Assembly: GCA_036567745.1 (NCBI GenBank)
Contig: DATCTW010000054.1
Location: 37,488 to 101,487, forward strand
DNA: 64,000 nucleotides
Direction: 5' to 3'
DNA from: Ignavibacteria bacterium
Lineage (GTDB): Bacteria > Bacteroidota > Ignavibacteria > DATCTW01
The notes below the pieces were generated by a model. That model saw nothing but the letters and a program-made list of their open reading frames with translations. It had not been told where the DNA came from and searched no databases. Below, in pieces: positions 1 through 48,822 of the stretch. The translations under genes and the position numbers were made by a program. Within the stretch, counting starts at the first letter, position 1; every line of letters begins with the position of its first letter.

Positions 1-26
1 AATTTATATTAAAGTCAAGTTTTAAT

Positions 27-1784
27 TTGCAATCGATTGGTGATTTTTATGAGAAGGTACTAAGTATAAAGTTCAAGTTTAAAAATAAAAGGATTAAAGT
101 TGTTTTTGATAATTCTTTAAGAAAGCAAAAGGGTGTTTTTTATACGCCTCAATCAATCGTTGAGTTAATGATATCTGAGGTTTTAAAAGATAAGAAAAAC
201 TCTAATAATAAATTATACCTAAAAGTCTTTGACCCGTCATGTGGAACAGGAAATTTTTTAGTGGAATTTTTTAATAAATTTCTCACACAGAATAATGAAA
301 AGAAAACTTTAAAAAATTTATCAAAAAAACAAATATCTCTTTTTAATGATGAAATAATAAAGAATGAAATATCTTTAAAGGAGAAAAAAAATATAATTAA
401 AGAATTTATATTTGGTATTGATGTTGATCCAATAGCTATTAGGCTTTTAAAAACAATTTTTTTATTGAAGCTTTATGAAAATGAGAAAAACTTTAAAATT
501 GATAAAAGCTTAATAAAAATTCTGGATAAAAATTTGATAACCGGTAACTTCTTAAATTCAATTGAAAATGAAAAAGATAATATTCTAAACAAAAATTATA
601 AAAAAGGTTTTGATGTTATTATAGGCAATCCTCCATGGGTTACGATAAGGAAAAATGAAATTGGGAAAAGGAAATGGGATGAGTTGCGAAAACAGTATAA
701 ATCAGTTTCTATCTTTAAATTTAATTTATTCCCGATTTTTCTTGAAAAGTGCATAAGTATGATGAAAAAAGATACTATGATATCTTTTATTATACCTCAA
801 AGATTGCTTGATGCTCCAAGTTATTTTCATTTAAGAAATATTATGATTGATCAAAAATTGATTAGAAGAATCTTGAAAATTAATTCAAACAATTTTGATG
901 GTGTTGTTGCTGATTCGGTAATAATATTTCTTGATAAGGTAGAAAAAAGTTTTATTGAGATTAAGAATTATGATGCAAATAATACTCTTTTGAGTATAGA
1001 TAAACTAAATTATGAAAGCATAAAATCAAGTAATTATAAAATTAATATTTCTACATCTACTCGTCATAAAGGATTAATTACAAAGATTGAAAAGCAAAGC
1101 AAGGAATTGAAAAATTATTTTTCTGTTCATGTAGGAATGATGGTTAAAAAAAGAAAAGATATGTTAAAAAACTTTGATGTAGGTGAGCCAATTATTACTT
1201 CCAAGTGTTTTTATGATTATTCCGCAATAAAACCCAAATTTCTAGATTTATCAAAAGCTAAAATATATGGTGGTCTAAAAGATTTTAAAAAGCATTCAAT
1301 AACACCTAAACTAATTATAAAAAAAACCGGCAACAAAATAATATCTACATTAGAGCCTTATGGTTCTTTAGTTGAACAATCATGTTATTTATTACTTCCA
1401 AAGTCTAAGATCGATATATTCTTTTTCTTGGCACTACTTAATTCAAAATTAATTAATTTTTATTATAGAGTTAATCTCATAACTAATCCAGTTTCATTCC
1501 CATATATTCAACATTATGATTTAGAAAAACTACCATTATTTGATATTGAAAAAATAGTTAATAAAAAAGAATTAATTGAAGAAATTTCAAATGAATCAAA
1601 AAAAATTATAACATTGGAACAGACATTTTTACAGAAAGAAAAGAACAGGAGTAAAATAGTGATTGAAAAAAAGAAGGATAATATTAATGAAATGATTTAT
1701 AAATTATATGATTTATCTCAATCTGAAGTAAATGAAATAAATATGTTTGAAAAAAATTATTTTTTAAGTAAATCAGATACTTGA
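27..1784 (+). CDS. N6-adenine DNA methyltransferase (gamma-class) with C-terminal target-recognition domain; reading frame is open to the window edge, so the 5' end may lie upstream
   Basis: Motif I-like 'FDPSCGTGNFL' and catalytic 'GNPPW' (NPPY/W-type) seen in the translation; C-terminal 'LLNSKLINFYY' resembles TaqI/Eco57I-type TRDs; first in-frame start is TTG at 27 with no upstream stop before position 1. Confidence 0.8.
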   Translation: MQSIGDFYEKVLSIKFKFKNKRIKVVFDNSLRKQKGVFYTPQSIVELMISEVLKDKKNSNNKLYLKVFDPSCGTGNFLVEFFNKFLTQNNEKKTLKNLSKKQISLFNDEIIKNEISLKEKKNIIKEFIFGIDVDPIAIRLLKTIFLLKLYENEKNFKIDKSLIKILDKNLITGNFLNSIENEKDNILNKNYKKGFDVIIGNPPWVTIRKNEIGKRKWDELRKQYKSVSIFKFNLFPIFLEKCISMMKKDTMISFIIPQRLLDAPSYFHLRNIMIDQKLIRRILKINSNNFDGVVADSVIIFLDKVEKSFIEIKNYDANNTLLSIDKLNYESIKSSNYKINISTSTRHKGLITKIEKQSKELKNYFSVHVGMMVKKRKDMLKNFDVGEPIITSKCFYDYSAIKPKFLDLSKAKIYGGLKDFKKHSITPKLIIKKTGNKIISTLEPYGSLVEQSCYLLLPKSKIDIFFFLALLNSKLINFYYRVNLITNPVSFPYIQHYDLEKLPLFDIEKIVNKKELIEEISNESKKIITLEQTFLQKEKNRSKIVIEKKKDNINEMIYKLYDLSQSEVNEINMFEKNYFLSKSDT

Positions 1785-1831
1785 CATTCTCAATTATTCT
1801 AAATATATTCCAAACAAAAATTTTTGGAGTT

Positions 1832-3373
1832 ATGCTTTCCACTATTTTAAGTTGTACCACGTATGGGATAAATGCCTATATCGTAAAAGTCGAGACTCAT
1901 ATTGAATCTGCAAGTTTTGGGTATTTCAATATAGTGGGTTTGCCGGATACTTCTGTTAAAGAAAGTAAGGATAGAGTTGTTTCGGCGATAAAGAATTGTG
2001 GTTTTAGTTTACCTATAAGGCGAATAGTAGTAAATCTGGCTCCCGCAGATATTAAGAAAGAGGGCTCCGGATTTGATTTACCTATAGCGTTAGGTATAAT
2101 TGCTGCTCAAAATGAAGAGTTATTAGAGAGAATAAAAGATTATGTTTTTGTTGGTGAATTATCACTTGATGGGAAGTTGAGACCTGTAAAAGGTGCTCTT
2201 TCTATGGCTATTGAAGCAAAGAATCAGAATGTTAAGGGAATTATTCTTCCAATTTCAAATGCTAGAGAAGCAGGTATAGTAAAAGGGTTAAATGTATACC
2301 CTATGGAAAATTTTAATAATGTAATTGATTTTTTAAATAATCAAATAAATATAAGCCCAATTGAAATAAATGTTGAGGAGATTTTTAAAAGTGATTCAAA
2401 ATATAATTTAGATTTTGCTGATGTTAAAGGTCAGGAGAATGTTAAAAGATCTCTAGAGGTAGCAGCTGCTGGTGCGCATAATGTTATTATGATTGGTCCT
2501 CCGGGCTCCGGAAAAACAATGCTAGCAAAAAGAATTCCTTCGATATTACCTCCTTTAACTTTTGAAGAAGCAATAGAAACTACTAAAATTCATTCTATAG
2601 CAGGTTTATTACCACATAATTCAACAGTGCTTACAACCAGGCCATTTAGATCACCTCATCATACGATTTCTGATGCTGCTCTTGTTGGTGGTGGTCAGGT
2701 TCCTCGACCCGGAGAAATATCACTGGCACATTTTGGTGTATTATTCCTTGATGAATTACCTGAATTTGCAAGAAATGTTCTTGAAGTGTTACGTCAACCG
2801 CTTGAAGATTCACATGTAACAGTAAGTAGGTCCAAGCTTTCTATTGACTACCCGGCTAATTTTATGCTTGTTTGTGCTATGAATCCTTGTCCCTGTGGTA
2901 ACTATGGAAATCCAAATCAAGAATGTACATGTACAAATCAACAGATACAAAAATATATTTCTAAAATATCTGGTCCACTTATGGATAGAATTGATATTCA
3001 TATTGAGGTTGCCAGTGTTAAATATAAAGAACTTTCAGATAAAAGACATGGAGAACCATCATCAATGATAAGAGAAAGAGTAATAAAAGCACGGGAGATA
3101 CAAAGAAAAAGATTTGAAAATTATAAAAGTGTTTTTACCAATGCCGATATGCAATCAAAAGAAATTAGAGAGTTTTGTAAATTAGATGATAAGTGTGAAA
3201 TTTTATTAAATAATGCCATGACTAAGTTAGGACTATCTGCACGGGCTTATAGTAGAATTTTAAAAGTTTCAAGAACAATAGCTGATTTAGATTCTTCGGA
3301 TAATATAAGAGCTGATCATATAAGTGAAGCTATACAATATAGAAGTCTTGATAAAAATATTTGGTTATCATAA
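1832..3373 (+). CDS. comM: YifB/ComM family Mg-chelatase-like AAA+ ATPase
   Basis: Walker A 'GPPGSGKTML', Lon-like N-terminal region and ChlI-like C-terminal region; start chosen at internal ATG (M18 of the ORF) preceded by GGAG. Confidence 0.85.
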   Translation: MLSTILSCTTYGINAYIVKVETHIESASFGYFNIVGLPDTSVKESKDRVVSAIKNCGFSLPIRRIVVNLAPADIKKEGSGFDLPIALGIIAAQNEELLERIKDYVFVGELSLDGKLRPVKGALSMAIEAKNQNVKGIILPISNAREAGIVKGLNVYPMENFNNVIDFLNNQINISPIEINVEEIFKSDSKYNLDFADVKGQENVKRSLEVAAAGAHNVIMIGPPGSGKTMLAKRIPSILPPLTFEEAIETTKIHSIAGLLPHNSTVLTTRPFRSPHHTISDAALVGGGQVPRPGEISLAHFGVLFLDELPEFARNVLEVLRQPLEDSHVTVSRSKLSIDYPANFMLVCAMNPCPCGNYGNPNQECTCTNQQIQKYISKISGPLMDRIDIHIEVASVKYKELSDKRHGEPSSMIRERVIKAREIQRKRFENYKSVFTNADMQSKEIREFCKLDDKCEILLNNAMTKLGLSARAYSRILKVSRTIADLDSSDNIRADHISEAIQYRSLDKNIWLS

Positions 3374-3465
3374 TAAATATTTTCTTTGCCATTGCAAATT
3401 AAAATAAAATAATATATCTTTTTTATTATAAGTTTTTTAACAATTGATTTAAGGAGATGAATAAT

Positions 3466-4482
3466 ATGAAATTGAGGATTTCATATCTAAGCTATTTTGC
3501 GTTTCTTTTGATTTTTATTGTTTTGGGTTGTGGTGAAAAGAAACCCGAAATAAAACCAGTACCTGAGTTAACAGAATATAAAGATCCTAAATTTGCATTT
3601 TCTATACAGAGACCAAAAGATTGGGTTTCAAGTAGCACTGTTGGAAACGCAAGATTTATTTCTAGTGAAGCCGGAGTAAATAATTTTATTGATCCCTTTA
3701 ATGCAACTAAAGCAAAAGATGCAAGAATACAATTAATTGCTTTTAAAACAGGTGAAACAGCTCAGGATTTAGCAAAAGCTTTTAAAGATACTTCCCTTGC
3801 TGAAGGTAAAATAGTCGATAAAGAAGAAGATATTGAACTTGGTGGAGTAAAAGGTAAAAAAGTTACTATAAGTGCAAACTATGGAAAAGATAAAAAAATG
3901 AAATCATTTAGAGTTTTCTTCGTAAAAGATAGCCTTGCACATATAGTAGATTTTGCTGCTTTTAATGCTGGATACGAAGAGTGGGGACCTACTTTTGATG
4001 CAGTTTTAAAGACAATAAAATTTGGTGTTATTCCTGGTTCAAAGGCAACTGCTGGGGTTATTAAACCTTCAGATACATATGATAATTATTCTACACAGTA
4101 CTTTACAGTTCAATATCCTGATAATTTCAATTTCTCATCTCCTCCAAAAGGTAAAAATGATCTTTCAGTTGAAATGAAGGGCGATAGATTAGATTGTACT
4201 GTAAGAATAGATGTTTTTGGTGCTCAGAAATTAGATGTAGATAAAGTTGTTGCTCAAAATAAAGGTAAATATGTTGGTGCTGGCAATCCTGTTAAAACAA
4301 CTATTGATGGCAATCCTGCTTATTATATTCCATATTCACCAGCAAAGAATATTACAAGTAGAGCATATTTCGTAGTAAAGAATGATAAAGTTATTAGAAT
4401 TACTCTTAATTGGTATACTCCTGAAACTGACACTTATAAACCTGCTTTTGAAAAAGTTGTTGCTTCATTGAAACTTAAGTAA
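3466..4482 (+). CDS. hypothetical lipoprotein
   Basis: Lipoprotein signal peptide ending 'LGCGEK'; start moved to second ATG, which has proper spacing from AGGAG; no recognisable catalytic motif. Confidence 0.55.
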   Translation: MKLRISYLSYFAFLLIFIVLGCGEKKPEIKPVPELTEYKDPKFAFSIQRPKDWVSSSTVGNARFISSEAGVNNFIDPFNATKAKDARIQLIAFKTGETAQDLAKAFKDTSLAEGKIVDKEEDIELGGVKGKKVTISANYGKDKKMKSFRVFFVKDSLAHIVDFAAFNAGYEEWGPTFDAVLKTIKFGVIPGSKATAGVIKPSDTYDNYSTQYFTVQYPDNFNFSSPPKGKNDLSVEMKGDRLDCTVRIDVFGAQKLDVDKVVAQNKGKYVGAGNPVKTTIDGNPAYYIPYSPAKNITSRAYFVVKNDKVIRITLNWYTPETDTYKPAFEKVVASLKLK

Positions 4483-4494
4483 TTGTTTATTGTG

Positions 4495-4532
4495 AAAAAT
4501 CCCAATTTTTAAAATTGGGATTTTTCTTTTTT
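4495..4532 (+). terminator. rho-independent terminator (hairpin plus T-run)
   Basis: Inverted repeat aaaatcccaatttt / aaattgggatttt followed by tcttttttaa. Confidence 0.6.
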
Positions 4533-4558
4533 AATGACTTACCTTTTTATAATCGTTT

Positions 4559-5152
4559 ATGAAAACTCAAATAGTATTAGCAACACAGAACCAACACAAA
4601 GTAAAAGAAATAAAAAGTATACTTTGTGATTTAGATAATATTGAAGTATTGGATTTAAGTTACTTTCCTGAAATGGGACCCGTTAATGAAGATGGAAAAA
4701 CCCTTGAGGAAAATGCTATGAAAAAAGCTAAAGCTGTTTTTGAACATACTCAAGTTCTATCTCTTGCTGATGATACCGGCTTATTTGTTGATTATCTTTT
4801 AGGTGAACCAGGGGTTTACTCTTCAAGATATGCTGGAGAAAATGTAACTTATGAAGATAACAATAAAAAGTTATTAAATGCCTTAAAAGGTGTACCACCT
4901 AGAAAAAGAACAGCTCGTTTCAAATGTTGTGTCGCTTTATGTGGTAAAGAAATACAAAAAACATTTATTGGTGTAACAGAAGGGAAGATACTTTTTAGCC
5001 CCAGAGGTGAAAATGGTTTTGGATATGATCCTATTTTTTTACCAGATGGTTATGATAAAACTTATGCTGAAATGAGCGAAGAAGAAAAGAATAAAGTTAG
5101 TCATAGATATAAAGCCTTACTATTAGCAAAAGATTTTTTGAAAAGTATATAA
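4559..5152 (+). CDS. rdgB: non-canonical purine NTP pyrophosphatase (RdgB/HAM1, dITP/XTPase)
   Basis: N-terminal 'IVLATQNQHKVKEI' and 'FGYDPIF' signatures of the Ham1/RdgB family; about 197 aa. Confidence 0.85.
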   Translation: MKTQIVLATQNQHKVKEIKSILCDLDNIEVLDLSYFPEMGPVNEDGKTLEENAMKKAKAVFEHTQVLSLADDTGLFVDYLLGEPGVYSSRYAGENVTYEDNNKKLLNALKGVPPRKRTARFKCCVALCGKEIQKTFIGVTEGKILFSPRGENGFGYDPIFLPDGYDKTYAEMSEEEKNKVSHRYKALLLAKDFLKSI

Positions 5153-5183
5153 AAAAAGCTACTCATATGAGTAGCTTTTTTTA
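5151..5183. terminator. bidirectional rho-independent terminator between convergent rdgB and rpsU
   Basis: Perfect palindrome agctactcatatgagtagct flanked by an A-run on one side and a T-run on the other. Confidence 0.65.
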
Positions 5184-7553: not shown

Positions 7554-8156
7554 ATGAAAACAAAGCATTTTATATTATTTGTATCATTTGTGATACTTAT
7601 CTCAGGTTGTTATACAGTTTTAAGGCATCCAGAAGTTCCGAATCAGGATGAAATGGGTAATGTATATCATCAAAATATTGATACAAGAGATAATTGTTAT
7701 AGTTGTCATTCTCAAAGAAATGACCAAATTTATGACTATGAACGATATATGAATTATTATACTGATTATGGGAATGAACACAATTACTATCCACAAAGTA
7801 GATGGGATAGTTATTATAATGTTCCATGGTGGTTTACTCCTCCAAAAGTAACAGTTGGGGTTGGTTCAACTCCAAAACAAGAAACAAATGTTAATAAGTC
7901 AACATCTAATCAAGATAACAATAGTGTTAGAACAAGTGGTTCATCAAGAGGTAGTGATGTAAAAATATCAGCTCCTGCTCCTACAAGAGGAACTACAGGA
8001 AATAGCAATAATACTAGTTCTTCAAACACAAATAATAATAATAATGTAAGTAATTCAAATACTAGAAGCACAAATAGCAATGGTAATAAAACAGATTCTT
8101 CAAATTCAAATAATAATAATGATAAAAGAAATACTGGTTCAACAAGAGGGAAATAG
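7554..8156 (+). CDS. low-complexity lipoprotein (Tyr-rich N-terminal half, Asn/Ser/Thr-rich tail); composition paralog of the upstream gene
   Basis: Lipobox 'ISGC'; 'YYTDYGNEHNYYP...YYNVPWWF'; poly-N/S tail ending 'STRGK' like the upstream protein. Confidence 0.5.
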   Translation: MKTKHFILFVSFVILISGCYTVLRHPEVPNQDEMGNVYHQNIDTRDNCYSCHSQRNDQIYDYERYMNYYTDYGNEHNYYPQSRWDSYYNVPWWFTPPKVTVGVGSTPKQETNVNKSTSNQDNNSVRTSGSSRGSDVKISAPAPTRGTTGNSNNTSSSNTNNNNNVSNSNTRSTNSNGNKTDSSNSNNNNDKRNTGSTRGK

Positions 8157-12343: not shown

Positions 12344-14662
12344 CTATTCAATCTTTGAGGTTTTTATTTTAACATTATCAAGTGGATATGTAAATAGTTC
12401 ATCAACTGAAAAAACATTTGAAAAATCTTCAGCTGTAAAGAAAACTTTTAATTTATCAGCCATTTCAAACAATCTATTTTGATAGTATTCGATACTTTCA
12501 TCTCTAAAATTTGGGTTCCATTCTGAAGCTAATTTTAAGTTCTCACAACCGAAATAAATATCTTTAGGATTAATTTTTGTATCTAAAATTCCATGTGTAA
12601 GATTTTGCATTCTTTGAATTACTTCTTTATCAATATTTAATCTTTTATGAACTGCTTCATCACTAATAACGTAAAAAGAAATTTTATCATTAATTTTATA
12701 ATTTTTCCCAGTTGAAAGTGCAAGTTGGTAGTGGGGAATTATGTTCTTTTTATCATTTTTTACTTTAAAATTATAATCGCTTAAAGATTCTTTTATTATC
12801 TCTGTACGCATAAAATCAGAAATATCAAGTTTTCGATCTCTAATATCATTATAGTAAGATACAAATAGATTATGAATCTCTTGAATTTTATTATTTAAAA
12901 TATAATCTATACATTGTAGTAAAAATTTTCTGGCAAAATTTTCTAAATTATGAGGGAAAAGTAAATTCGTTTTCATTAAAATTTTGTTGTTATAGAGTAG
13001 AAAAGCCATATTTTTCTTTTTGTAGCTCAGTACTCGTCTTGCCCTAAATTTATACTCTATCCCTTCAACTTCTACCATTTTTTTTGAAAGCATCGAAACA
13101 TAGGATTTTTCAAGATCTTCATTAGTAACATCTCTTGGAGGAACAAATATTATCTCATTACCATCAACTTGAACAGGAATGCCCCCAGTATAAGATATAT
13201 ATTTTGTAATTTTTTCCATCAATTCTTTTGCTAGTTGAAAAACATTTTCGCCATATTCTTTCGAATTATAAATAACCCATGGTGTGTTAAGATATGAAAA
13301 AAAAGAATGTGAAAAGTTTTCAAGAGCTTTTTTAAAATCGGGTTCAAAGTTTTCTCTATCGCTTTCATTATCAGAACTTGATTCTGAAACTTCTTCAGGT
13401 TTAACGATATTCATTATATCTTGAAGCATTTTTTTAAATAAATCCAACGGATCTTTTTCTGATTTAAATTCTGATTTAAGAATAGCATTTTGATATAGCT
13501 TTATTACTTCGCATACAATTATTGGACCTAAAACCCCAGTATAGTATATTTCACTTATTTGACCTATAGATGGATCTGTTTTATCTGGTAAAGGTAAAGA
13601 ATATCTTTGTTTTAGATATTCACGGTATAAGATAGAATCTATTTTTTGTGCATTAGTTAATTTTAAAACTCTTCCTAAATTGTAAGAAATTAATCTGTTT
13701 AAATAAAAAACGGATGGTAAAAGTTTTTCGCAAATTTCATTTATAATGATGCAATTATTAAAAGGTTTTTCTGGTTCATCATTTGAAATTTTATCGTCGA
13801 TTTTAATATTAAATAAATTGATTATATTATTTAAAGATCCAATATCTTGTAACTTTTTTATTACATCGAACTGTAAAACAAGATCATTGATGTCAACAAA
13901 ATGTCTACCCGGAATTACAATTTTATTTTTTTCAAAGTCATAGTCATACTTGAAAAATCTTTCTTGTTTTTTAATGGGCAAAGAGTTCCTACCAATATTT
14001 AATTCAATATTAAACTCTTCACATTTTTTTATTAAAAAATCTAATGTATATGAATACAAATTATAACCCGCAATAATATCAGGGTCTTTTTCAATAATGA
14101 TTGATATGAATTCTTGTATTTTTTGAGCGTCATTTTTTCTATTGTCTTGAATAATTTTTTTCCAACCTTTATTATCTGTCAAAATAATTGCAGAAATTTC
14201 CTGATGTTTATCTTTTGTACTCTTTTTTGTGATAAGTTCTATATTAATTCTATATAAATCGGAAAAATTAAGACCTTTAAATAGTGTTTTACCGTACTCG
14301 ATAAGATATTGGCCAACAGGATCATTTTTAATACTAATTTCAATGAAATCTTTTTCAGAAATATTTTTTTTCTTTCTAATTGTATCAAATGCAAAATTAT
14401 AAGCATTTTTTAAATCATTCCAATTTTGAAAAACACATAAATATTTATAATAATTATTACCTTGCAATTTCTTTTTTAAAGGTTGAGGATTAAATTCTTC
14501 AAGTAATGAAATATCTGATATAAAGAAAAATGGATAAAACTCTCTATCTTCGTATGATACTATATTATTTATTTTTTTATAAACTCTAATAGTTTTTTCA
14601 TTTAGTTGATAACAGGCAATTATGTTTTGTTCAGGGTCTGAACCAAATAGAAAAGAAGTCAT
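12344..14662 (-). CDS. family-B DNA polymerase-like protein with degenerate catalytic motifs
   Basis: Exo II-like 'GYNLYSYTLDFLIKK' (cf. PolB 'GYNIQNFDLPYLI'); inter-domain 'LLPSVFYLNRLISY...ILYREYLKQRYSLPLPDK' resembling the archaeal PolB 'LSRLIGQ...LLRKAYERNELAPNK' stretch; Y-GG-like 'YYTGVLGP'; motif A-like 'CEVIKLYQNAI' (Asp to Glu); motif C-like 'VQVDGNEI' (DTD to DGN); KxY-region-like 'SKKMVEVEG'. Confidence 0.55.
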   Translation of the reverse strand: MTSFLFGSDPEQNIIACYQLNEKTIRVYKKINNIVSYEDREFYPFFFISDISLLEEFNPQPLKKKLQGNNYYKYLCVFQNWNDLKNAYNFAFDTIRKKKNISEKDFIEISIKNDPVGQYLIEYGKTLFKGLNFSDLYRINIELITKKSTKDKHQEISAIILTDNKGWKKIIQDNRKNDAQKIQEFISIIIEKDPDIIAGYNLYSYTLDFLIKKCEEFNIELNIGRNSLPIKKQERFFKYDYDFEKNKIVIPGRHFVDINDLVLQFDVIKKLQDIGSLNNIINLFNIKIDDKISNDEPEKPFNNCIIINEICEKLLPSVFYLNRLISYNLGRVLKLTNAQKIDSILYREYLKQRYSLPLPDKTDPSIGQISEIYYTGVLGPIIVCEVIKLYQNAILKSEFKSEKDPLDLFKKMLQDIMNIVKPEEVSESSSDNESDRENFEPDFKKALENFSHSFFSYLNTPWVIYNSKEYGENVFQLAKELMEKITKYISYTGGIPVQVDGNEIIFVPPRDVTNEDLEKSYVSMLSKKMVEVEGIEYKFRARRVLSYKKKNMAFLLYNNKILMKTNLLFPHNLENFARKFLLQCIDYILNNKIQEIHNLFVSYYNDIRDRKLDISDFMRTEIIKESLSDYNFKVKNDKKNIIPHYQLALSTGKNYKINDKISFYVISDEAVHKRLNIDKEVIQRMQNLTHGILDTKINPKDIYFGCENLKLASEWNPNFRDESIEYYQNRLFEMADKLKVFFTAEDFSNVFSVDELFTYPLDNVKIKTSKIE

Positions 14663-21804: not shown

Positions 21805-23844
21805 ATGATAAAATTAAAATCTACTATTTTCATGGTTTTGTTTCTTTTTTTGTTTAGCGAAGGATTTTCTCAGAATATAAATGATAATATTCAGAAGTTG
21901 GATAGTTTAGCCTCAAAGCTAACTCAAAAAAATAAAGTTATTCGTGATGTAGCTACTTATAAAGTATTTCCTGAGAATAGTGATAACATCACAGATAATG
22001 GATATCTTTATACTAAAATGAATGGTTATCAACTTCCTTTAAACCATCCTTTAGTAAAATTATTGGATGAAATTTTTTATAATGAAGATCAAAATGGAGT
22101 AGTTGTATCAAATGATAAAGCTATAGGTTATAGAAAGGATGGACAGGATAAAACTTATAAAAGAGGCAATCTTTTCAGAGAAGATTCAACTATTGGAGTA
22201 AACGTTTATTATGCGCAGAAACCAAAATCACAAATGAATACAAGTGTTACAAAACGTTTTGAAATAGCTGAGATATTAATTCTTAAGAAGACAAATATAC
22301 CAGATGTTGATCAATCTGAAGAAGAGGAAGAAACTGGTACCAGAAGACGTACAAGGACTAAAACCACAAAATATATACAATATCCAAAAAATATGTGGTA
22401 TTCACTTTCAGGAACAAATTTAAAGAAAGCATTAGAAGGTTATGATAAAAATTTATATAATCAGATATTACGTTTATATGATGAGAGAATCGATGATTTA
22501 AATTTGAGCCCTTATTTCCCATTACCTAAAAGAGGTCCATTCCTTGTATCTGACTCTCTTGGTATAAATACTTTTACCAGTTATTTTACTAATACTCCAA
22601 TCTTCACTCCTCCTTCACCTGAAGAAACTATTAATAATTTACCTGAAGTTACTGGATTAGATCCTAACTCATTAGATGTTACTGCTTTTTCACCTTTTAT
22701 TAATGTCAAAGCAGGTGTAGATAATATTACAACAATACCTATTTCGAATAGATCAAAAAATCCAATAAAAATTGAGCAAGTTTCTTTAGAAAAACCAGAT
22801 CCTGTATGGAAAATTAAGAGTGCGGTATCAGTATTAGAACCTGAAAATTCATCAGAAATTGAGGTTGTATATAATCAATCTAAACCTGATAAAGAAGATA
22901 GGAATAATCTTATAATAAAGTGGTCTGAAGAGGGAGTTAAAACTGGAACTACTGTTGTACCTATAGCTGGAAAGACATCTCCTGAACCCCCGAGAATCTT
23001 TATAGATTTTTCACCACTATATTTTTCAGGTATATTTAGATTTGCAAATGATTGGAATTTTTCTTTTAAATTAGGTGATAAAGAAATAAATTATCCTTTC
23101 TGGTCAACAGGTAATTTAAGTTTACTTGCTGGATATCAGAATATTGTTAAGTTTGGTGTTGTATTACCTGCTAATTTTACAAATGGTGAAACCTTTGATG
23201 TTGGTTCAATAGTTGCTCCTCAGAGAAAACTTCATGGTACTGTAGGTTTGGCAGTTGAATTTAATTTGCAACCCACAGTGATGAGAAGTATTAATGAAGC
23301 TTTTGCTTTAGGTGGATATTTCTATTATGGTAAAATTAAAGATGGTAAAGAATATAGTAAGAAACCTCTAAATATTAATAATGATTTTTATTATGTGCCA
23401 ATTATAGCTCAAGTTTACTATCCTCTTATATTTAAGGATCTGGAGAAAAACCCTAAGAACATATTTCAAGTAAAAGCTGGTTTTAGTTACCATCAGGTTA
23501 AAAGAGAGCATATAATAACTAAATCGGAAATAGGACAAATGTTTTATGGGAAAGAAGAAAGATTAGTAACAAAGGATGATGTTGGCAAAGTGTATGAAGT
23601 AGAACTTATTAAGAAAGTTCCTTCACCTCTTGTTAGAATAGAATATATGAATCTTAATTCAGGTAATCAATTTGGTTTTGGTTTCCAGTTTGTTAATAAC
23701 ATTGCTAATTTTGATGCATGGCTTGAAGTTACAAAATGGTTGAGGATAGAAGCTTCGTACGTTCAACCTTTGAGAGATGCTGAAGAATGGGAAAATTCTG
23801 CTTTCTTCTGGATTTCACCGAGAATTTATTTCCCAATACCATAA
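21805..23844 (+). CDS. secreted hypothetical protein, probable outer-membrane component
   Basis: Signal peptide 'MVLFLFLFSEGFSQ'; C-terminal half rich in alternating aromatic/hydrophobic beta-strand-like segments. Confidence 0.4.
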   Translation: MIKLKSTIFMVLFLFLFSEGFSQNINDNIQKLDSLASKLTQKNKVIRDVATYKVFPENSDNITDNGYLYTKMNGYQLPLNHPLVKLLDEIFYNEDQNGVVVSNDKAIGYRKDGQDKTYKRGNLFREDSTIGVNVYYAQKPKSQMNTSVTKRFEIAEILILKKTNIPDVDQSEEEEETGTRRRTRTKTTKYIQYPKNMWYSLSGTNLKKALEGYDKNLYNQILRLYDERIDDLNLSPYFPLPKRGPFLVSDSLGINTFTSYFTNTPIFTPPSPEETINNLPEVTGLDPNSLDVTAFSPFINVKAGVDNITTIPISNRSKNPIKIEQVSLEKPDPVWKIKSAVSVLEPENSSEIEVVYNQSKPDKEDRNNLIIKWSEEGVKTGTTVVPIAGKTSPEPPRIFIDFSPLYFSGIFRFANDWNFSFKLGDKEINYPFWSTGNLSLLAGYQNIVKFGVVLPANFTNGETFDVGSIVAPQRKLHGTVGLAVEFNLQPTVMRSINEAFALGGYFYYGKIKDGKEYSKKPLNINNDFYYVPIIAQVYYPLIFKDLEKNPKNIFQVKAGFSYHQVKREHIITKSEIGQMFYGKEERLVTKDDVGKVYEVELIKKVPSPLVRIEYMNLNSGNQFGFGFQFVNNIANFDAWLEVTKWLRIEASYVQPLRDAEEWENSAFFWISPRIYFPIP

Positions 23845-23888
23845 ATGAAAATATGAAAATAAAAATAAAGATGTGGAGTTCGATTATT

Positions 23889-25388
23889 ATGAAAAAAATA
23901 TTATTTACCGGTTTTGCAATACTCTATATCCTCTTTTCTTTTAATTTATATGCTCAAAAAAAAGATAGTTTGAGTTTGGTTAGATCTCAAATTGAACCTA
24001 CAGAAAAGAGAATAGTTAACCCGGTTAACACTTTTTGGGATGAATTAAATTCACTCAGAGATAAAACTCCTGATCAACTATCAGTAGATGATATAAAAAA
24101 TATTGAAAATAAGATAGCGTATTTGGAAACTGAAAATAAAAGGTTGGATATTATTTTAAATGCTATTACTGAACTCAACCCTTTTTTCAGAGAATATCTT
24201 CCTCAATATATAGTTGAAGATGAAGAAATGCAAATAAGAATTGTTAATCAACTAAGGATGTATTTTGGGTTAAGTGAACCGGAGATGAATAGGCTTAAAA
24301 GTGAGATTAGGGGTGGAAAAATTAAAATAAGAGTTATTCAGAAACCTCTTACAGAAGAGGAACTTCAAGAAGAAGAACCAGAAAGAGCTTTAATTGGTAT
24401 ATATCTTGACCAGTATAAAATTGTTGGAAGCCAAGCTTTAACTGCTACCTTAGGTGAAGATTTATATAATAAACTTTTAGCTGATGTAGATAAATTTAAA
24501 ATAAAAACAGGTTCAGGCCCACTTTATAAAGAGCCTAAATTTGCTACTACAGATATTTCTATTTCAGGTGGTGCTTTAGCACTTAACTTACAAGCAGATA
24601 CTGCTCTCATTCAAATAGGTGCAAATGTAGCAATTGGTTATGATATTCTTAATTTACCTTTCTGGTATGGTGCTGTATGGAATGTTTCTGCTTTTTATCG
24701 ACCCGATCCAGATCAATATTATATGCTTGGAACACTTATTCCTTTTAGACCTGGTGATTCAGAAGTTGATTTAGTTGGGCCAATTCAATTAAAATCAAGA
24801 AAACTTAATGGCACTTATGGTATTTCTGCTGAGTTTGGTAAAAAACTTTTTGATATTTTACTAAAAGAAGATGAATGGGAAGGAAATAGTACTCTTGGAA
24901 TTTATATTGGTGGTAGTTTCAGTTATAGTGATTTAAAGAAGAGAGGGGATGAAATACTTGTTGATATAAATAGCAATAAAATAGGTTATTTGAATAACAA
25001 TCCTTTCTATTATATTGGTGCACATTATATTGGTTTTCTTGGATTTGAAGCACCAGCTTTATTGAAAGGTTTGCATTTTAATATTGGTTATGGTGCTTTT
25101 GCTGTTCACAAGACTGTAGTAGAAAAAGATGGTGAATCATTAAAGAAACTATCAAAGACAACAATATCTGATTTATATGCTAAACTTACATATGCACACG
25201 AAGGTATTACTGATTATACAATCTCTGCACAATATTTTAATCAATCACTTATGCTTTCTGGAATATTAAAAGTTTTTTCATGGCTCGGTCTTGAAGTTAA
25301 ATATGCAAGAGTCGTTGGAAGAGATCCTGATCCTTATGAATATCGAGATTACGTAACTGTTAGTCCTAGATTTTCATTTAGTTTCTAA
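23889..25388 (+). CDS. outer-membrane beta-barrel protein (hypothetical)
   Basis: Signal peptide 'AILYILFSFNLYAQ'; C-terminus 'SPRFSFSF' with terminal Phe typical of OMP barrels; start moved to ATG with GGAG RBS (ORF track 23787). Confidence 0.5.
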   Translation: MKKILFTGFAILYILFSFNLYAQKKDSLSLVRSQIEPTEKRIVNPVNTFWDELNSLRDKTPDQLSVDDIKNIENKIAYLETENKRLDIILNAITELNPFFREYLPQYIVEDEEMQIRIVNQLRMYFGLSEPEMNRLKSEIRGGKIKIRVIQKPLTEEELQEEEPERALIGIYLDQYKIVGSQALTATLGEDLYNKLLADVDKFKIKTGSGPLYKEPKFATTDISISGGALALNLQADTALIQIGANVAIGYDILNLPFWYGAVWNVSAFYRPDPDQYYMLGTLIPFRPGDSEVDLVGPIQLKSRKLNGTYGISAEFGKKLFDILLKEDEWEGNSTLGIYIGGSFSYSDLKKRGDEILVDINSNKIGYLNNNPFYYIGAHYIGFLGFEAPALLKGLHFNIGYGAFAVHKTVVEKDGESLKKLSKTTISDLYAKLTYAHEGITDYTISAQYFNQSLMLSGILKVFSWLGLEVKYARVVGRDPDPYEYRDYVTVSPRFSFSF

Positions 25389-35516: not shown

Positions 35517-38500
35517 TTATTTAATAAACATCATTTTTCTTGTTTGAGAAAAGTTGTTTACTTTCAAAATATAAAAATATACTCCGCTTGTAAGATCTTT
35601 TGGTATAAAATCAATTGAATAAGTGCCAGCAGGTTTGTATTCATTAACTAATTCTTCAACTTCTCTTCCATAGATATCAAATAGTTTTAGAGATACAAAT
35701 CCATTTTCTTTTATAGCATAATATATTCTTGTACTAGGATTAAATGGATTGGGATAATTTTGTTTTAACTCGTAACTTAAAGGTATCTCATTTTTATCGT
35801 TTACCTGAACGTTGGTTGTGGCTTCAGCTAAAATTACAATTTCATTATTTGATGTAATATCATTTGATAAAACTTTGATTTTTGCATCTTTTACACCAAT
35901 TGTTTTTGCTGTAAATTTTACTGTTACACTATCACTTTGACCTTCAGCTATATTATAGGGGTATGTTTTGTTTATTATTTCAAATTCAGAAGCATTATTA
36001 CCTGTTACCGTTATTCCAGATATTGTAAGAATTGCATTCCCAGAATTACCTATTCTAAAACCACTATACTTAATGTTATCTTTCATCACTTTTCCGAAAT
36101 CAACCTTTTGAGAAAGAATCATATTAGGTGCTGCTCCTAAACCAAATAAAGGTATTAACTTTTCAGGAATATTGGGGTCATTTGTTTTTAATTTTAAAAC
36201 AGAACTATAATTCTTTGGCTCATTAGGTGAAAACTTTATTACAATTATTTTTTCTTCTGCGGGTTGAATTTGAATTGGTAATGGAATATAGTTAACAAAA
36301 AATCCATCTGCGTTTATAAGTGAAACTGAGTCAACAATAAGAGTAGATAATCCATTATTTCTAATTTTTAAAGTTTTAATAGAACTATCTTTAACATTTA
36401 CTTTATTGAAATTAAAAGCAGAATCTGATAGTGTCATGATTGGGAATGATGAGTTGCCATTTAACAATATCTCGAAAATTGGTTTTTGTAAATCATTACT
36501 TTTAATTCTTAAAATTGCATTTGCTTGAGATAAACTTGATTGATATCTTATTACAATATTATCTGATTCACCAGCTAATAATGTAAAAGGAACAGATTTA
36601 CCGATTATTGAGAATCTATTCTTATTAGTGCCAATAATGTTCAATGAATCTATCACAAGAGGGGCATTCCCATTATTTTTGATAGAAATAATAGTATCTT
36701 TATAAAATCCAGTATTGACATATCCAAAATCTATTATGTTATAAGCTAAATAAAGAGAAGGTAATGAAGCTGTTTTTCCTGTACCTTTCAAAATGATATA
36801 ATCTTCTGGTTTATTTTGGTCATTACTTGTTATTACGAGTCTAGCGTATCTTAAACCAGTATCAGAGGGGATAAAGCTTACCTTGATATTTTTTTCTTCA
36901 TTTGGAGCTAAAACTATGTTATTGTAATTTGCTCCTAAAATAAAATCAGTATAAAATGCACCATCAAGATATATATTACCAATTTCAAGATTAGAGTTTC
37001 CATTATTTTTTATTACTATTTCAGTATCAGATTTTCCACCAATATCAGTTGTATTGTATTGAATTGTACTGACATATTTATATAAAGATGCATATTTAAC
37101 GTTGGCAATAATTGGTATGTTTAATATACTTAACGATGGATCATTTGAGTTTATACTAAGTTGTGCACTCTTATTTCCTCCAGGTAACGATGCATTAAAT
37201 CTAAATTTTACTGTATCAGATTGATTGAAAAGTAATGTTTTTGGAGAGTTATTAATGATAAACCCAAAACTTGAGTTATCACTTCCAGTGAATGAAAAAG
37301 ATGATAATATTAAATCGAGGTTGCCTGTATTTGTAATGATGAGAGTTGTATCTTTATATTTGCCTGCAACGCAGTCTCCCAGATTTATTGATGAATAATT
37401 TGTAGAAATTACAGCTTTGCCTCCTCCAAAACCAGTTAAGTTGATAGTTCTTATTGGAGTAAGATCATTACTTGTAATTGTGAGTGTTGCGTTTTTTATG
37501 CCGGCTGTATGAGGATAAAATAGTATTTGAACTGTATCATTAGCACCACTCTGCAATGATACATTAGTTTTTTTATTTAATATCTTAAAAGAAACTGTAT
37601 CCCCTGTGATAACTTTATCAAATAATGTAACAGTTACATTTGTTTTATTAAATGATGACTGTTTTAGTAAAGTTGAGGAGTTGTGGATTATCAAGTTTAA
37701 AGTCTTGCTTACCTGACCAATAAAAGTGCTATCAAAATTGATTGAAGAAGGTGTAAAAGTTAAATATGATTGTTGAACATTTGCGCTTACTGTAATAGTA
37801 AAACTAGTGTTATTCTTTGAGTTATTGTTGATTGTAATAGTTCCTGTTTTTACACCTAAAATATTAGGTTTTAACCTTATTGTGATGTAATATTTTTCGG
37901 ATGGATTTAGGATTACACCACTTGAAGGTAATGTAGTTGTAATTTCAAAGGAAGAGTCAGCAGTTGCTAATCCCACAGAGAATATTTTAAGTTTATAAGA
38001 ACCAGTGTTTGTTATTTCAATTGTAGAATCTTTATTGCCCGAACCTATTCCTACGACCCCAAAATTAATTGTAGTTTTATTTGCAGCTATTATCGAACCA
38101 AATACTTTTCCAGTTACATTCAAATTTGCTGTAGGTTGATTGCCTGAATTATTGTTGAAAGTGATTGTTCCTGAAAAAGTGCCAACAGAATCAGGGTTAA
38201 ATCTTATTTTAATATTTTTACTGCTATTAGGTGATACTTTAATAGGTAACGTTTCATTTAGTGAAAACTTATTGTTACCTCCTGTATATACTACAGATGT
38301 GATAACTAATGAATCAGTTAATGATGTGTTTGTAATTAACAGTAAAGAATCACTTGGCGTAGACAAAAATCCTAATGAATCAAAGTTTATTGTGGTTTTA
38401 TTTTGACTCCAGACTGAGCTACTTGCAATTCCATTACCACTTAAAGGCACATTCAAAGTCGCCCCGGCACCACCATAAGAAATTATTAGGTTTGCACTTT

Positions 38501-40889
38501 TTGAGCCTATACTAACTGGAGAAAATCTAATTGTTATAACCTGATTTGATGATGGAGTAATTGTAAGAGGTAATGTGGGTGGAGATACTAAATGAAAAGA
38601 AGAAGTATCTGTTCCGGAAAATGTAAAACTATTTATTATTAAATTAGCTAAACCAGAGTTTGTAATAGTTATTGTTTTATCGCTATATTGTGATGTTTTT
38701 ACGTCACCATAAGATAGCGATGTTGGGTTTACACTTATAGCAGCTAAAGGTGTGGCTGTAAAATTTGCAGTAGTTTGATTAGCACTTAGATTAGTATAAT
38801 TTCTACTCGAAGGTGAAAAGCTATAATTCGTTTTGGATGGTGTTAATGTATAGCTTCCACCTGCAGAAAGATTTGAAAAAGTAAATACACCTGATGAATT
38901 TGTAGTTGTTGAACCAGAAGAGCTACCTGAAAGTGTTACTGTTACTCCACTTATAGGGTTATTACTACCATCTTTTATTGTCCCACTTATAGAATATGTA
39001 ACAGGTGAAGATGTAGACCAACCCATATCCGCCATTTGATTTAGTACAATAGAACCTGGAGAATGTATGGCTTCTCCGTTAGCAAGTGCATAAGTCATTA
39101 AATTATTTCCGCTACCGGGTGGATATGTTGATTCATCAAGGTGATAAATTGAAGATCCACCTGACCATGCTGCAGGTGCATACAATCTTGCAGTTCCAGT
39201 GTTTGGTCCATTCCACCATAAATTATTTCCTGTTAGTTGATTTCCTAAATCTGTAGAAGGGTTAAAAAATATACCGGTATTAATCAGTAGTTGGCTTGAA
39301 CCATTATAAATAAATCTATCGAATATGTAGGGATAGTGATAAGTTGGATCCCCCCACGAACCTACGCCTCCGGAATAGCTAAAGGAGCCAACATAACCTA
39401 AACCATGACATAACTCGTGCAATACTACTGATACAAAATCATATTTTGTAAATGGAGTATTGCCATCTGTCCCGAAGTACCAATTGGAAAAATCACTGTT
39501 AAAATTAGCATTTATATCTGGATTTGTGTTTAAGTTTAATCTATCACCATTAATTTTTTCAGCAAGTGCAACAGGATACCATGTATTAGCATAAGGTTGA
39601 TTATTAAAACCTGTATAAGATGTAGAGGGTCCTGCACTACCCAGTATTCCTGAACCTAATGAGGTGTATGTTGCATTTACACGAATTGGAACTGACGAGG
39701 TTATGAGAGAAGCCCATATATCAATAGCATATTGAAATGCTGCTTGTGCTTCGGCACTAAATCCTGTATATGTTACAATTATTGTAGCTGCATTGGTTTT
39801 ATTTTGTTTATTCTTATAAAATTCAATTGGTGGAGGTAAATAATATCTTTGAATTTCGTCTGAGGCTTTAACATACATATATCTATCATTGGGTCTGGCA
39901 ACAATTAATTTTTTGGGTAGTTCAATCCAATTAATACCGCCATCGGTAGATTTAAAAACAGAACCAGAAGATGAACCAGCAATAATATTATTTTTCTTAA
40001 AAGAAATAAATTCAGCTGATCTTATTGAATAATCGAAATTTGTTTTTTTCCATACATCTCTTTCTTCATCAAGTATATACAATCCATTATCATAAGTAGA
40101 GAGAAAAACTTTGCCATTAATATCTGTAGTAATAAATTTTATTTTTTTAGTTCCTAACCCATCATTCAAGGCTGTGATTGTAGTACCACCATCTTTAGAA
40201 ATAAAAATACCATTGTTAAAGGTTGTAAAATATAAAGTGTTATTATAGTTTTTGATATCAGTAATATTTTCTCCGCTTATAAAATTGTTTATTTTGATCC
40301 ACGATGAACCTTTATCGTATGATTCATATAAACCTTTTTCTGTACCTACAATTATTTTTTTATTCAAAGAGGTGATTGGAGCAATAAGAATTTTTTCAGG
40401 TAAGGTACTAACTTTCTGCCAGTTTTTTCCTCCGTCTTGTGATTTATAAACTATTCCATTATCATCAACTAGAATCAAATCATTATCAACTTGGATGATA
40501 TTCCTATAAGCATTATTTTTTGGTAAGTTAGAAATTATTTGCCAGTATTGCGATGAATTGTCAAAAGAATATATACCTAAACCTGTAATTGCAAAGAGTT
40601 TGTTATTGCTATCTAAGAATAATTTACGGATATCATAAGATTCTAATCCTTCACTGACCCTAAACCACAATATCCCTTCATCAGTTGATTTCCATATACC
40701 TGCACCCCAGGTGCCAGCAAAAATTTCTCCATACTGATTCACTACGGTTGAATATAAAGGGCGAAATTGAAGTTCTCTTCTTAACTCTTCAATATTTTGC
40801 TGCGAAAAAGAAATCACAACAAAAGTTAAAGTTAATAAAAGAGAATATTTAAATAATTTCGTAAAATTATAAATCATCTCAAACCCCAC
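35517..40889 (-). CDS. giant T9SS-secreted surface protein: N-terminal BNR/Asp-box beta-propeller, HEXXH zinc-metallopeptidase-like domain, many Ig-like beta-sandwich repeats, C-terminal Por sorting domain
   Basis: Signal peptide; repeated 'S-x-D-G-G-x-x-W' BNR boxes; 'VVLHELCHGLGY' (coded around 39395-39420); repetitive T/S/N-rich beta-sandwich modules; C-terminus 'GVYFYILKVNNFSQTRKMMFIK' typical of T9SS CTDs. Confidence 0.8.
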   Translation of the reverse strand: MGFEMIYNFTKLFKYSLLLTLTFVVISFSQQNIEELRRELQFRPLYSTVVNQYGEIFAGTWGAGIWKSTDEGILWFRVSEGLESYDIRKLFLDSNNKLFAITGLGIYSFDNSSQYWQIISNLPKNNAYRNIIQVDNDLILVDDNGIVYKSQDGGKNWQKVSTLPEKILIAPITSLNKKIIVGTEKGLYESYDKGSSWIKINNFISGENITDIKNYNNTLYFTTFNNGIFISKDGGTTITALNDGLGTKKIKFITTDINGKVFLSTYDNGLYILDEERDVWKKTNFDYSIRSAEFISFKKNNIIAGSSSGSVFKSTDGGINWIELPKKLIVARPNDRYMYVKASDEIQRYYLPPPIEFYKNKQNKTNAATIIVTYTGFSAEAQAAFQYAIDIWASLITSSVPIRVNATYTSLGSGILGSAGPSTSYTGFNNQPYANTWYPVALAEKINGDRLNLNTNPDINANFNSDFSNWYFGTDGNTPFTKYDFVSVVLHELCHGLGYVGSFSYSGGVGSWGDPTYHYPYIFDRFIYNGSSQLLINTGIFFNPSTDLGNQLTGNNLWWNGPNTGTARLYAPAAWSGGSSIYHLDESTYPPGSGNNLMTYALANGEAIHSPGSIVLNQMADMGWSTSSPVTYSISGTIKDGSNNPISGVTVTLSGSSSGSTTTNSSGVFTFSNLSAGGSYTLTPSKTNYSFSPSSRNYTNLSANQTTANFTATPLAAISVNPTSLSYGDVKTSQYSDKTITITNSGLANLIINSFTFSGTDTSSFHLVSPPTLPLTITPSSNQVITIRFSPVSIGSKSANLIISYGGAGATLNVPLSGNGIASSSVWSQNKTTINFDSLGFLSTPSDSLLLITNTSLTDSLVITSVVYTGGNNKFSLNETLPIKVSPNSSKNIKIRFNPDSVGTFSGTITFNNNSGNQPTANLNVTGKVFGSIIAANKTTINFGVVGIGSGNKDSTIEITNTGSYKLKIFSVGLATADSSFEITTTLPSSGVILNPSEKYYITIRLKPNILGVKTGTITINNNSKNNTSFTITVSANVQQSYLTFTPSSINFDSTFIGQVSKTLNLIIHNSSTLLKQSSFNKTNVTVTLFDKVITGDTVSFKILNKKTNVSLQSGANDTVQILFYPHTAGIKNATLTITSNDLTPIRTINLTGFGGGKAVISTNYSSINLGDCVAGKYKDTTLIITNTGNLDLILSSFSFTGSDNSSFGFIINNSPKTLLFNQSDTVKFRFNASLPGGNKSAQLSINSNDPSLSILNIPIIANVKYASLYKYVSTIQYNTTDIGGKSDTEIVIKNNGNSNLEIGNIYLDGAFYTDFILGANYNNIVLAPNEEKNIKVSFIPSDTGLRYARLVITSNDQNKPEDYIILKGTGKTASLPSLYLAYNIIDFGYVNTGFYKDTIISIKNNGNAPLVIDSLNIIGTNKNRFSIIGKSVPFTLLAGESDNIVIRYQSSLSQANAILRIKSNDLQKPIFEILLNGNSSFPIMTLSDSAFNFNKVNVKDSSIKTLKIRNNGLSTLIVDSVSLINADGFFVNYIPLPIQIQPAEEKIIVIKFSPNEPKNYSSVLKLKTNDPNIPEKLIPLFGLGAAPNMILSQKVDFGKVMKDNIKYSGFRIGNSGNAILTISGITVTGNNASEFEIINKTYPYNIAEGQSDSVTVKFTAKTIGVKDAKIKVLSNDITSNNEIVILAEATTNVQVNDKNEIPLSYELKQNYPNPFNPSTRIYYAIKENGFVSLKLFDIYGREVEELVNEYKPAGTYSIDFIPKDLTSGVYFYILKVNNFSQTRKMMFIK

Positions 40890-48641: not shown

Positions 48642-48715
<74 letters not shown>

Positions 48716-48719
48716 CAAT

Positions 48720-48822
48720 GAGGTCAAGTCCTGTGCAATTAAGAGTTGCCAAACCCCGTCAGGTCCGGAAGGAAGCAGCGGTAGGCAAATTTCTAATGTG
48801 ACGCAGGTAAACTTGGCCTCTT
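48720..48822 (+). ncRNA. ffs: small signal recognition particle RNA (4.5S-type)
   Basis: Contains conserved domain IV core 'GTCAGGTCCGGAAGGAAGCAGC'; 5' GAGGTCAAGT pairs with 3' ACTTGGCCTC to close the hairpin; followed by an 8-T run. Confidence 0.7.

Follow-up and report, generated by a model that had tools for sequence, protein, structure and literature searches.

The window, a stretch of 64,000 nucleotides from an Ignavibacteria bacterium, opens inside a reading frame that carries DNA methyltransferase motifs. The locus therefore raises the question of whether this frame is the clipped remainder of a larger defence enzyme with partner genes lying upstream, or belongs to a methyltransferase that is complete in itself. 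The former had been proposed in an earlier, sequence-only reading, in which the frame was taken as possibly part of a larger restriction-modification (R-M) or BREX-type protein. The evidence given below points strongly to the latter. The feature is very probably the 3' five-sixths of a gene for a 706-aa Ignavibacteria DNA N6-adenine methyltransferase, complete and stand-alone, that is nuclease-less, solitary and kept at a fixed locus.

Recovery of the 5' end and assignment of the start codon

The product of yifB (window 1832-3373) was used for an exact look-up, which returned three public contigs, and the DNA upstream of the window was recovered by this route. Positions 8170-13348 of contig L001 (Logan SRR2059973_4751, 23.5 kb) were 100% identical to window positions 1-5179, and the contig added 8,169 bases upstream. 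The methylase reading frame in L001 started with TTG (TTG-GAA) at position 7833, which corresponds to window position -336 and lies 339 nt before base 3. An in-frame TAA was present at L001 7782-7784, 17 codons upstream of this start. The window edge hides 113 codons, and the complete methylase comprises 706 aa. This protein was identical to GenBank HEY9188308.1 ("MAG TPA: N-6 DNA methylase [Ignavibacteria bacterium]"), and its neighbours were found under consecutive accessions. A further copy of the methylase with 97% identity (P0121) was located on a 1.5-Mb JGI contig.

The Met-Glu start was kept in four lineages (TTG-GAA in L001, L005 and L006; ATG-GAA in L004), and an in-frame stop was found 6-21 codons upstream of the start across the four. 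The TTG at window position 27 was rejected as the start because it falls within LQSIGDFYEKVL, a motif that is conserved in the helical domain. The alternative TTG at L001 7821 was rejected because it was not kept in L005 or L006. The sequence-only reading was thus correct that the frame runs off the 5' edge, since L001 extends it by 113 codons. The clipping of a larger R-M or BREX-type protein was not borne out: these 113 residues are all that is missing, and they belong to a helical connector, not to a nuclease or to the long N-terminus of a PglX protein. The opposite outcome, which that reading had also named, was a stand-alone methyltransferase with a stop codon and a promoter immediately upstream and a start at 27. 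In substance this is what was found, with the start at the upstream TTG and not at 27.

Domain layout and sequence motifs

The features of the methylase gene were assigned as follows. All are on the forward strand; coordinates are those of the window and residue numbers those of the full-length protein unless otherwise indicated.

3 to 1784 (+): visible part (aa 114-706 plus the stop codon) of the stand-alone N6-adenine methylase gene (from the translation, L001 and HEY9188308.1)
3 to 107 (+): C-terminal end of an all-helical connector domain, full-length aa 1-148 (from alignment A1, the AlphaFold2 model and the layout of BpuSI)
108 to 1013 (+): predicted gamma-class N6-adenine methyltransferase catalytic domain, aa 149-450 (Pfam N6_Mtase, Eco57I and MmeI_Mtase)
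225 to 260 (+): motif I, AdoMet binding, VFDPSCGTGNFL, aa 188-199, with the core DPSCGTGNFL at 231-260
618 to 638 (+): motif IV, catalytic, IIGNPPW, aa 319-325, with NPPW at 627-638
1014 to 1553 (+): target recognition domain (TRD), with a TaqI_C core at 1230-1538 (visible aa 410-512)
1557 to 1775 (+): three long C-terminal helices with a YxLYxLTxxEI-type motif common to Type IIG relatives (from the alignment and the AlphaFold2 model)

Frame 3 of the forward strand was open from base 3 to a TGA at 1782-1784, a translation of 593 codons without a stop. At 24% GC each codon has a stop probability of 0.10, and 593 codons in a row would stay open by chance with a probability of approximately 2e-28. 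The visible part of the methylase scored above the cut-offs of the Pfam models Eco57I (85.8 bits; cut-off 25.3), N6_Mtase (60.4 bits; cut-off 20.4), MmeI_Mtase (31.7 bits; cut-off 27) and TaqI_C (52.1 bits; cut-off 26.5). A KGVFYTP motif was found at visible aa 43-49 (nt 129-149). Residues D190, G194, G196 and F198 of motif I, and N322, P323 and P324 of motif IV, were unchanged across 94 relatives. Within the 706 residues motif I (aa 188-199) was followed by motif IV (319-325) and then by the TaqI_C match (523-625). The protein was assigned to the gamma class on the basis of this order, in which motif I precedes motif IV and the recognition domain is C-terminal. Judged by Pfam scores and motifs, it is predicted to be a gamma-class N6-adenine DNA methyltransferase, and on this point, as on the C-terminal TRD and the positions of the motifs, the sequence-only reading held.

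From these matches we infer catalytic activity and specificity for adenine. By homology, the recognition domain would bind a specific sequence, the target adenine would flip into the NPPW pocket, and the AdoMet bound at motif I would give its methyl group to the N6 position of the adenine.

An AlphaFold2 model of P0001, a relative with 94% identity, had a mean pLDDT of 86.4 and a pTM of 0.84. Residues 1-132 of the model were nearly all helical, without an alpha/beta nuclease core. On the alignment, the N-terminal connector is homologous to the linker that joins nuclease and methyltransferase in Type IIG relatives.

The nuclease domain in relatives and in this clade

The nearest relatives outside the clade in alignment A1 (P0004-P0012; 31-36% identity, 880-1003 aa) were Type IIG proteins, and kinship to enzymes of this type, which had been proposed earlier, was therefore upheld. 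In A1, P0004-P0012 bear an additional N-terminal segment of approximately 190 aa with the motif ...D-Y-x-F...K-F-F-L-E-A-K..., which is the PD-ExK signature known from Pfam HSDR_N. In the same alignment P0001-P0003, close relatives of the window protein, and the window protein itself (706-721 aa) begin at the helical linker, exactly where the nuclease domain ends. More generally, most relatives at 25-36% identity were proteins of 850-1000 aa with an HSDR_N nuclease domain.

Of the 120 best relatives, 82 were matched by a profile HMM of the nuclease segment, and none of these was shorter than 842 aa (median 922 aa). The HMM gave no match in P0001-P0003 or in the window protein. Six-frame translations of approximately 99 kb (13.3 kb of L001, the 64-kb window and 22 kb of L004) likewise gave no match to this HMM, with a best E-value of 1.1. 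The order of helical connector, gamma methyltransferase and TRD that is expected of a Type IIG enzyme was present in the methylase. An endonuclease domain on the same polypeptide was absent, as judged by the alignment, the HMM and the N-terminus of the AlphaFold2 model. Membership of the Type IIG class fails despite the relatedness, since this is the defining domain, and without it the protein could modify DNA but could not cut it.

Models of individual defence families were also scored. The top PADLOC profile was REase_MTase_IIG (7.2e-37); its match was confined to positions 322-710 of 1011, a stretch that lies downstream of the profile's nuclease region. The NCBIfam models of the BREX methyltransferase MTaseX all scored far below cut-off: BREX-1 (60.7 bits; cut-off 500), BREX-2 (28.3; 400), BREX-5 (17.5; 900) and BREX-6 (42.2; 900). 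The model of the MADS methyltransferase MAD2 (NF047738) gave 61.2 bits against a cut-off of 720, and that of the Alw26I/Eco31I/Esp3I-type methyltransferases (TIGR02987) 93.2 bits against 353.5.

Profile scans of genome and metagenome contigs were carried out with the clade alignment, and the generic IIGNPP(W) pattern apparently swamped the matches. Among the matches listed in these scans local identity was 35% or less, and 28% or less for those of near-full length.

Neighbouring genes and transcription signals

Genes on either side of the methylase were examined in L001 and in the window. Two window features bear on the downstream side.

1785 to 1831 (+): 47-nt spacer between the methylase gene and yifB, with GGAG before the ATG of yifB (consensus match only)
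1832 to 3373 (+): yifB/comM-type Mg-chelatase-like AAA ATPase gene (TIGR00368, 687 bits), the conserved downstream neighbour

Upstream, L001 carried genes for a 775-aa protein in divergent orientation (referred to below as GH-like), an M1 aminopeptidase with HEAT repeats, a 485-aa terminase-like ORF, a 124-aa ORF and a sugar-nucleotide enzyme. The partner defence genes that had been suspected upstream were not found in this part of L001; the GH-like gene, the M1 peptidase and the terminase-like ORF were found instead. Downstream of the methylase were yifB and genes for a PsbP-like protein, Ham1/RdgB, S21, Toluene_X and a PTA_PTB-family protein (phosphate acetyl/butyryltransferase). Apart from the GH-like neighbour, the flanking genes are housekeeping genes. 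PADLOC gave no meaningful defence match in ten flanking proteins, with two weak generic ones only (HEAT repeat and AAA). PglZ, BrxC, BrxA, BrxB, BrxL and other BREX genes were absent from the approximately 20 kb of flanks, and no gene for a cognate endonuclease was found within approximately 8 kb upstream (L001) or 10 kb downstream. The methylase is accordingly classed as solitary ('orphan') in an operational sense, that is, with no adjacent endonuclease, as judged on approximately 72 kb of this genome.

The 775-aa neighbour had no Pfam match and was the sole candidate for a cryptic endonuclease. More than 200 full-length members of its family, at approximately 40% identity, were found in Ignavibacteria, KSB1 and Bacteroidota, and GH76 or GH88 Pfam domains are present in a few of these members; the 775-aa protein itself gave a weak PDB match to alpha-1,6-mannanase. 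In three other lineages members of the family lay among aminotransferase, amidohydrolase, BNR/sortilin, PfkB, heparinase and GH38 genes, and no methylase was found near them there. The candidate was rejected as a hidden endonuclease on account of this large GH76/GH88-like family of sugar-utilisation clusters. On its family relationships it is predicted to be a carbohydrate-active protein and not an R-M partner.

A TAtATTTt/gCAA element was located approximately 35 nt upstream of the methylase start and was kept in four lineages. It resembles TAnnTTTG, the -7 promoter motif of Bacteroidetes. A sigma-70-like sequence, TTGACA-17-TATATT, at nt 1781-1809 overlaps the methylase stop codon ahead of yifB and is a consensus match only. 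The sigma-70 scan returned 18 promoter-like sites against 24.6 expected in shuffled sequence, and in DNA as AT-rich as this such matches carry no information. A terminator scan found no terminator-like site after the methylase gene. The transcription signals around the methylase are suggestive only.

Conservation, selection and the amber allele

Contig L004 (178 kb, JGI) was used for comparison of the locus with a diverged relative. The order GH-like (reverse strand), methylase, YifB, a protein of 338-342 aa, Ham1, S21 (reverse strand), further genes, Toluene_X and PTA was kept. The methylase is fixed in the chromosome between the GH-like gene and yifB, and the synteny with L004 shows the persistence at one locus across diverged relatives that is looked for in an orphan methylase. 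Identity to the L004 orthologue was 39% for the methylase, 57% for the GH-like gene and 70-89% for most of the other neighbours; the methylase is by far the fastest-evolving gene of the syntenic block and the GH-like gene the second fastest. In each genome the methylase was also the gene of the block with the lowest GC content (here 22%, the others 28-35%; in L004 33%, the others 33-42%).

Values of dN/dS (Nei-Gojobori) for the methylase were 0.28 in a comparison at 94% identity and 0.19 at 82% identity. These values are 5-8 times the yifB value of 0.04. Within the catalytic and recognition domains dN/dS was 0.14-0.20 (82%-identity comparison). By region, the recognition domain was the best conserved relative to the L004 orthologue (54% identity) and the connector the worst (19%); the dN/dS of the connector was near 0.9 in this comparison, which is saturated. 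An intact reading frame of 706-721 aa was present even between lineages whose methylases are only 39% identical. The methylase is under moderate purifying selection yet fast-evolving, and this combination of maintenance by selection with fast evolution fits a formerly mobile R-M-type gene that is now fixed at one locus.

One codon of the gene is a stop in some contigs.

288 to 290 (+): CAG (Gln) in the window, TAG (amber) in three contigs (L087, L174 and L175)

The amber alleles came from three samples, had 98.2-98.4% DNA identity and carried no other disruption. They end the methylase just after motif I. Database entries of 469 aa had been considered as contig-end artefacts; this was rejected, as these truncated entries go back to a real CAG-to-TAG change in the three contigs. 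The amber allele in one sublineage indicates that the methylase is dispensable in at least that sublineage. Taken together, the fast evolution, the lowest GC and the amber allele suggest that the methylase may be dispensable or decaying.

Interpretation

The simplest reading of the methylase is that it descends from a Type IIG-like R-M lineage and is without the endonuclease domain, which would have been lost. Other explanations of the locus were weighed against this. The proposal that the window clips a large protein, either a bifunctional Type IIG enzyme or a BREX PglX, and that partner defence genes lie upstream of it draws on REase_MTase_IIG as the best PADLOC model (7.2e-37) and on the HSDR_N domain of most 25-36%-identity relatives, which are 850-1000 aa long. 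It is extremely improbable, as the full ORF is 706 aa with its start and upstream stops kept in four lineages, no nuclease domain was found in the protein or in the six-frame translation of approximately 99 kb, and BREX PglX models scored 17.5-60.7 bits against cut-offs of 400-900. The flanks, moreover, hold no PglZ, BrxC, BrxL or other defence genes. On the strength of the upstream DNA, the alignment, the HMM for the nuclease and the cut-offs of the NCBIfam models, the Type IIG/PglX reading was rejected. Little more credence is given to the methylase as one half of a two-gene R-M system whose endonuclease is unrecognisable and adjacent, or is encoded elsewhere in the genome. Restriction endonucleases often have no detectable domains, the 775-aa neighbour has no Pfam match and is the second fastest-evolving gene (57% identity), and there is partial similarity (93 bits) to the Alw26I/Eco31I/Esp3I methyltransferase family of Type IIS systems. 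The neighbour, however, falls in a GH76/GH88-like family of more than 200 members that elsewhere has no methyltransferase nearby, the TIGR02987 score of 93 is far from the cut-off of 353.5, and an amber methylase allele would be lethal beside an active cognate endonuclease unless that had been lost also. This explanation is therefore very unlikely.

If the gene were without function, left over from a former Type IIG system and with decay still to come, this would account for its having the fastest evolution and the lowest GC within the block, for the amber allele in three samples, and for a connector that is 19% identical to that of the L004 orthologue with a (saturated) dN/dS near 0.9. Such a remnant is nevertheless very improbable: the ORF is intact at 706-721 aa down to 39% identity, overall dN/dS is only 0.19-0.28, with 0.14-0.20 for the catalytic and recognition domains (82% comparison), all catalytic motifs are kept, and no region is better conserved than the recognition domain. 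A further and unlikely possibility is that this nuclease-less Type IIG descendant has been domesticated as a lineage-specific epigenetic methylase in the Ignavibacteria clade, in the manner of CamA. Were this so, methylation could serve to regulate genes, or as a DNA mark in some process connected with YifB/ComM, and the amber allele in three samples would be a natural off-variant. The proposal of domestication cites the position of the methylase directly upstream of yifB/comM, the lack of a terminator-like site between the two genes, and the recognition domain as the best conserved region.

The preferred interpretation remains the complete, solitary and nuclease-less methylase at a fixed locus. 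It is an ordinary solitary methyltransferase that had already been annotated automatically; GenBank lists the gene as an N-6 DNA methylase, and the result matters little beyond correct annotation. The locus illustrates that an ORF with Type IIG-like motifs can run off the edge of a sequence without being a clipped defence enzyme. Should a conserved target and a part in regulation be shown for the methylase, it would be another nuclease-less, Type IIG-related orphan epigenetic enzyme, from a poorly studied phylum, and as such a modest finding.

Comparison with known systems

Likeness to CamA and M.BseCI came from a fold search and not from the PDB sequence search, which returned only weak local matches (E 1e-4 or worse) and did not return CamA at E <= 0.01. 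Foldseek against the PDB placed CamA first (E 2e-24; TM 0.72-0.74 normalised to CamA; 18-20% identity), followed by M.BseCI and then by BrxX/PglX, MmeI, DrdV, M.TaqI and BpuSI.

CamA is an orphan N6-adenine methyltransferase of Clostridioides difficile, solitary, encoded in the core genome and without an associated endonuclease (PMC8187626; PDB 7lni/7lt5). Like the window protein, it is a stand-alone methyltransferase with a C-terminal recognition domain and no associated endonuclease. The alignment of the two extended over at most approximately 650 columns including gaps, and the CamA chains have 537-576 residues, so that part of the window protein, probably the N-terminal connector, has no counterpart in CamA. 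The resemblance is one of architecture only and does not show that target or role are shared, and some strains here carry a nonsense allele.

BREX PglX/BrxX proteins share the gamma methyltransferase core and a TaqI-like TRD with the window protein (Foldseek E 1e-15 to 1e-18). They differ from it in their size of approximately 1200 aa, in their large additional N- and C-terminal regions and in the PglZ, BrxC and further BREX genes that accompany theirs. M.TaqI and M.BseCI, Type II gamma-class N6-adenine methyltransferases from classical R-M systems, share the catalytic fold, the NPPY/W motif and a TaqI_C-type recognition domain, but their genes adjoin that of a cognate endonuclease and they are without the N-terminal helical connector.

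The layout of BpuSI comprises a nuclease (residues 6-174), a helical connector (175-289), a methyltransferase (293-579) and a TRD (580-876) (PMC3185434). Type IIG/IIL enzymes (BpuSI, MmeI and DrdV; Pfam Eco57I, MmeI_Mtase and TaqI_C) differ from the window protein in an N-terminal PD-(D/E)xK endonuclease domain of approximately 190 aa, whereas the window protein starts at the connector; as it has no endonuclease domain, no cleavage function is expected of it. In the remainder these enzymes and the window protein are alike, with a connector, a gamma methyltransferase, a TaqI-like TRD and C-terminal helices in the same order.

Allelic variation in the methylase gene

The glutamine codon CAG at window 288-290, within the gene for the stand-alone N6-adenine DNA methyltransferase (methylase), was replaced by the amber codon TAG in three public contigs that are 98% identical to the window and come from three different samples (L087, at 212-214; L174; L175). 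In these alleles the methylase is cut off after motif I. The remainder of the gene in the TAG-bearing contigs carries no second disruption. The contigs may represent a natural knock-out sublineage, which, if true, would help to assign a methylation motif.

An unaligned first segment was seen in L173 (JGI 3300011965 contig), in which positions 208-1800 were 98.6% identical to window 308-1900 and positions 1-207 did not align to the window. The methylase call on this contig (P0134, 497 aa) differs at its N-terminus. Rearrangement, insertion or chimeric assembly might account for this.

Composition and divergence

The methylase gene (window 3-1784) had a GC content of 22%, the minimum of the syntenic block, compared with 28-35% for its neighbours. 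It was also the most diverged gene of the block relative to L004, the contig of a diverged relative with the same gene order, at 39% identity against 57-89% for neighbouring genes.

Surrounding features

One terminase-like ORF was located upstream of the window, on the contig that is identical to window 1-5179 (L001). It is listed below together with features further along the window.

L001 898-2731 (roughly 5.4-7.3 kb before window base 1): 485-aa ORF, nuclease domain of the terminase large subunit (Terminase_6C, E 3.6e-6; T7-type RNaseH-like, 8.7e-6)
12344-14662, minus strand: 772-aa ORF, weak DNA polymerase B exonuclease-domain match only (E 6.4e-7)
35517-40889, minus strand: 1790-aa protein with many Ig-like repeats (ASH, Cep192_D4, HYDIN/VesB-like, DUF1573) and a CarboxypepD_reg domain
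48642-48715, plus strand: tRNA gene
48722-48821, plus strand: small bacterial SRP RNA (74 bits), beginning 6 nt after the tRNA gene

The terminase-like ORF, with a 124-aa ORF ahead of it and housekeeping-type genes on either side, may be an isolated prophage remnant. The 1790-aa product is a giant protein, probably located at the cell surface or secreted. No Pfam match at E <= 1e-5 was returned for three large ORFs of 679, 533 and 800 aa (window 21805-25388, plus strand, and 45924-48326, minus strand).

Promoter and ribosome-binding signals

No Shine-Dalgarno sequence was found for the methylase; the downstream gene yifB has GGAG. Approximately 35 nt 5' of the methylase start, a TAtATTTt/gCAA element was conserved in four lineages (L001 7790-7805, with equivalents in L004 and in the further methylase lineages L005 and L006), which resembles the Bacteroidetes-type -7 promoter motif.
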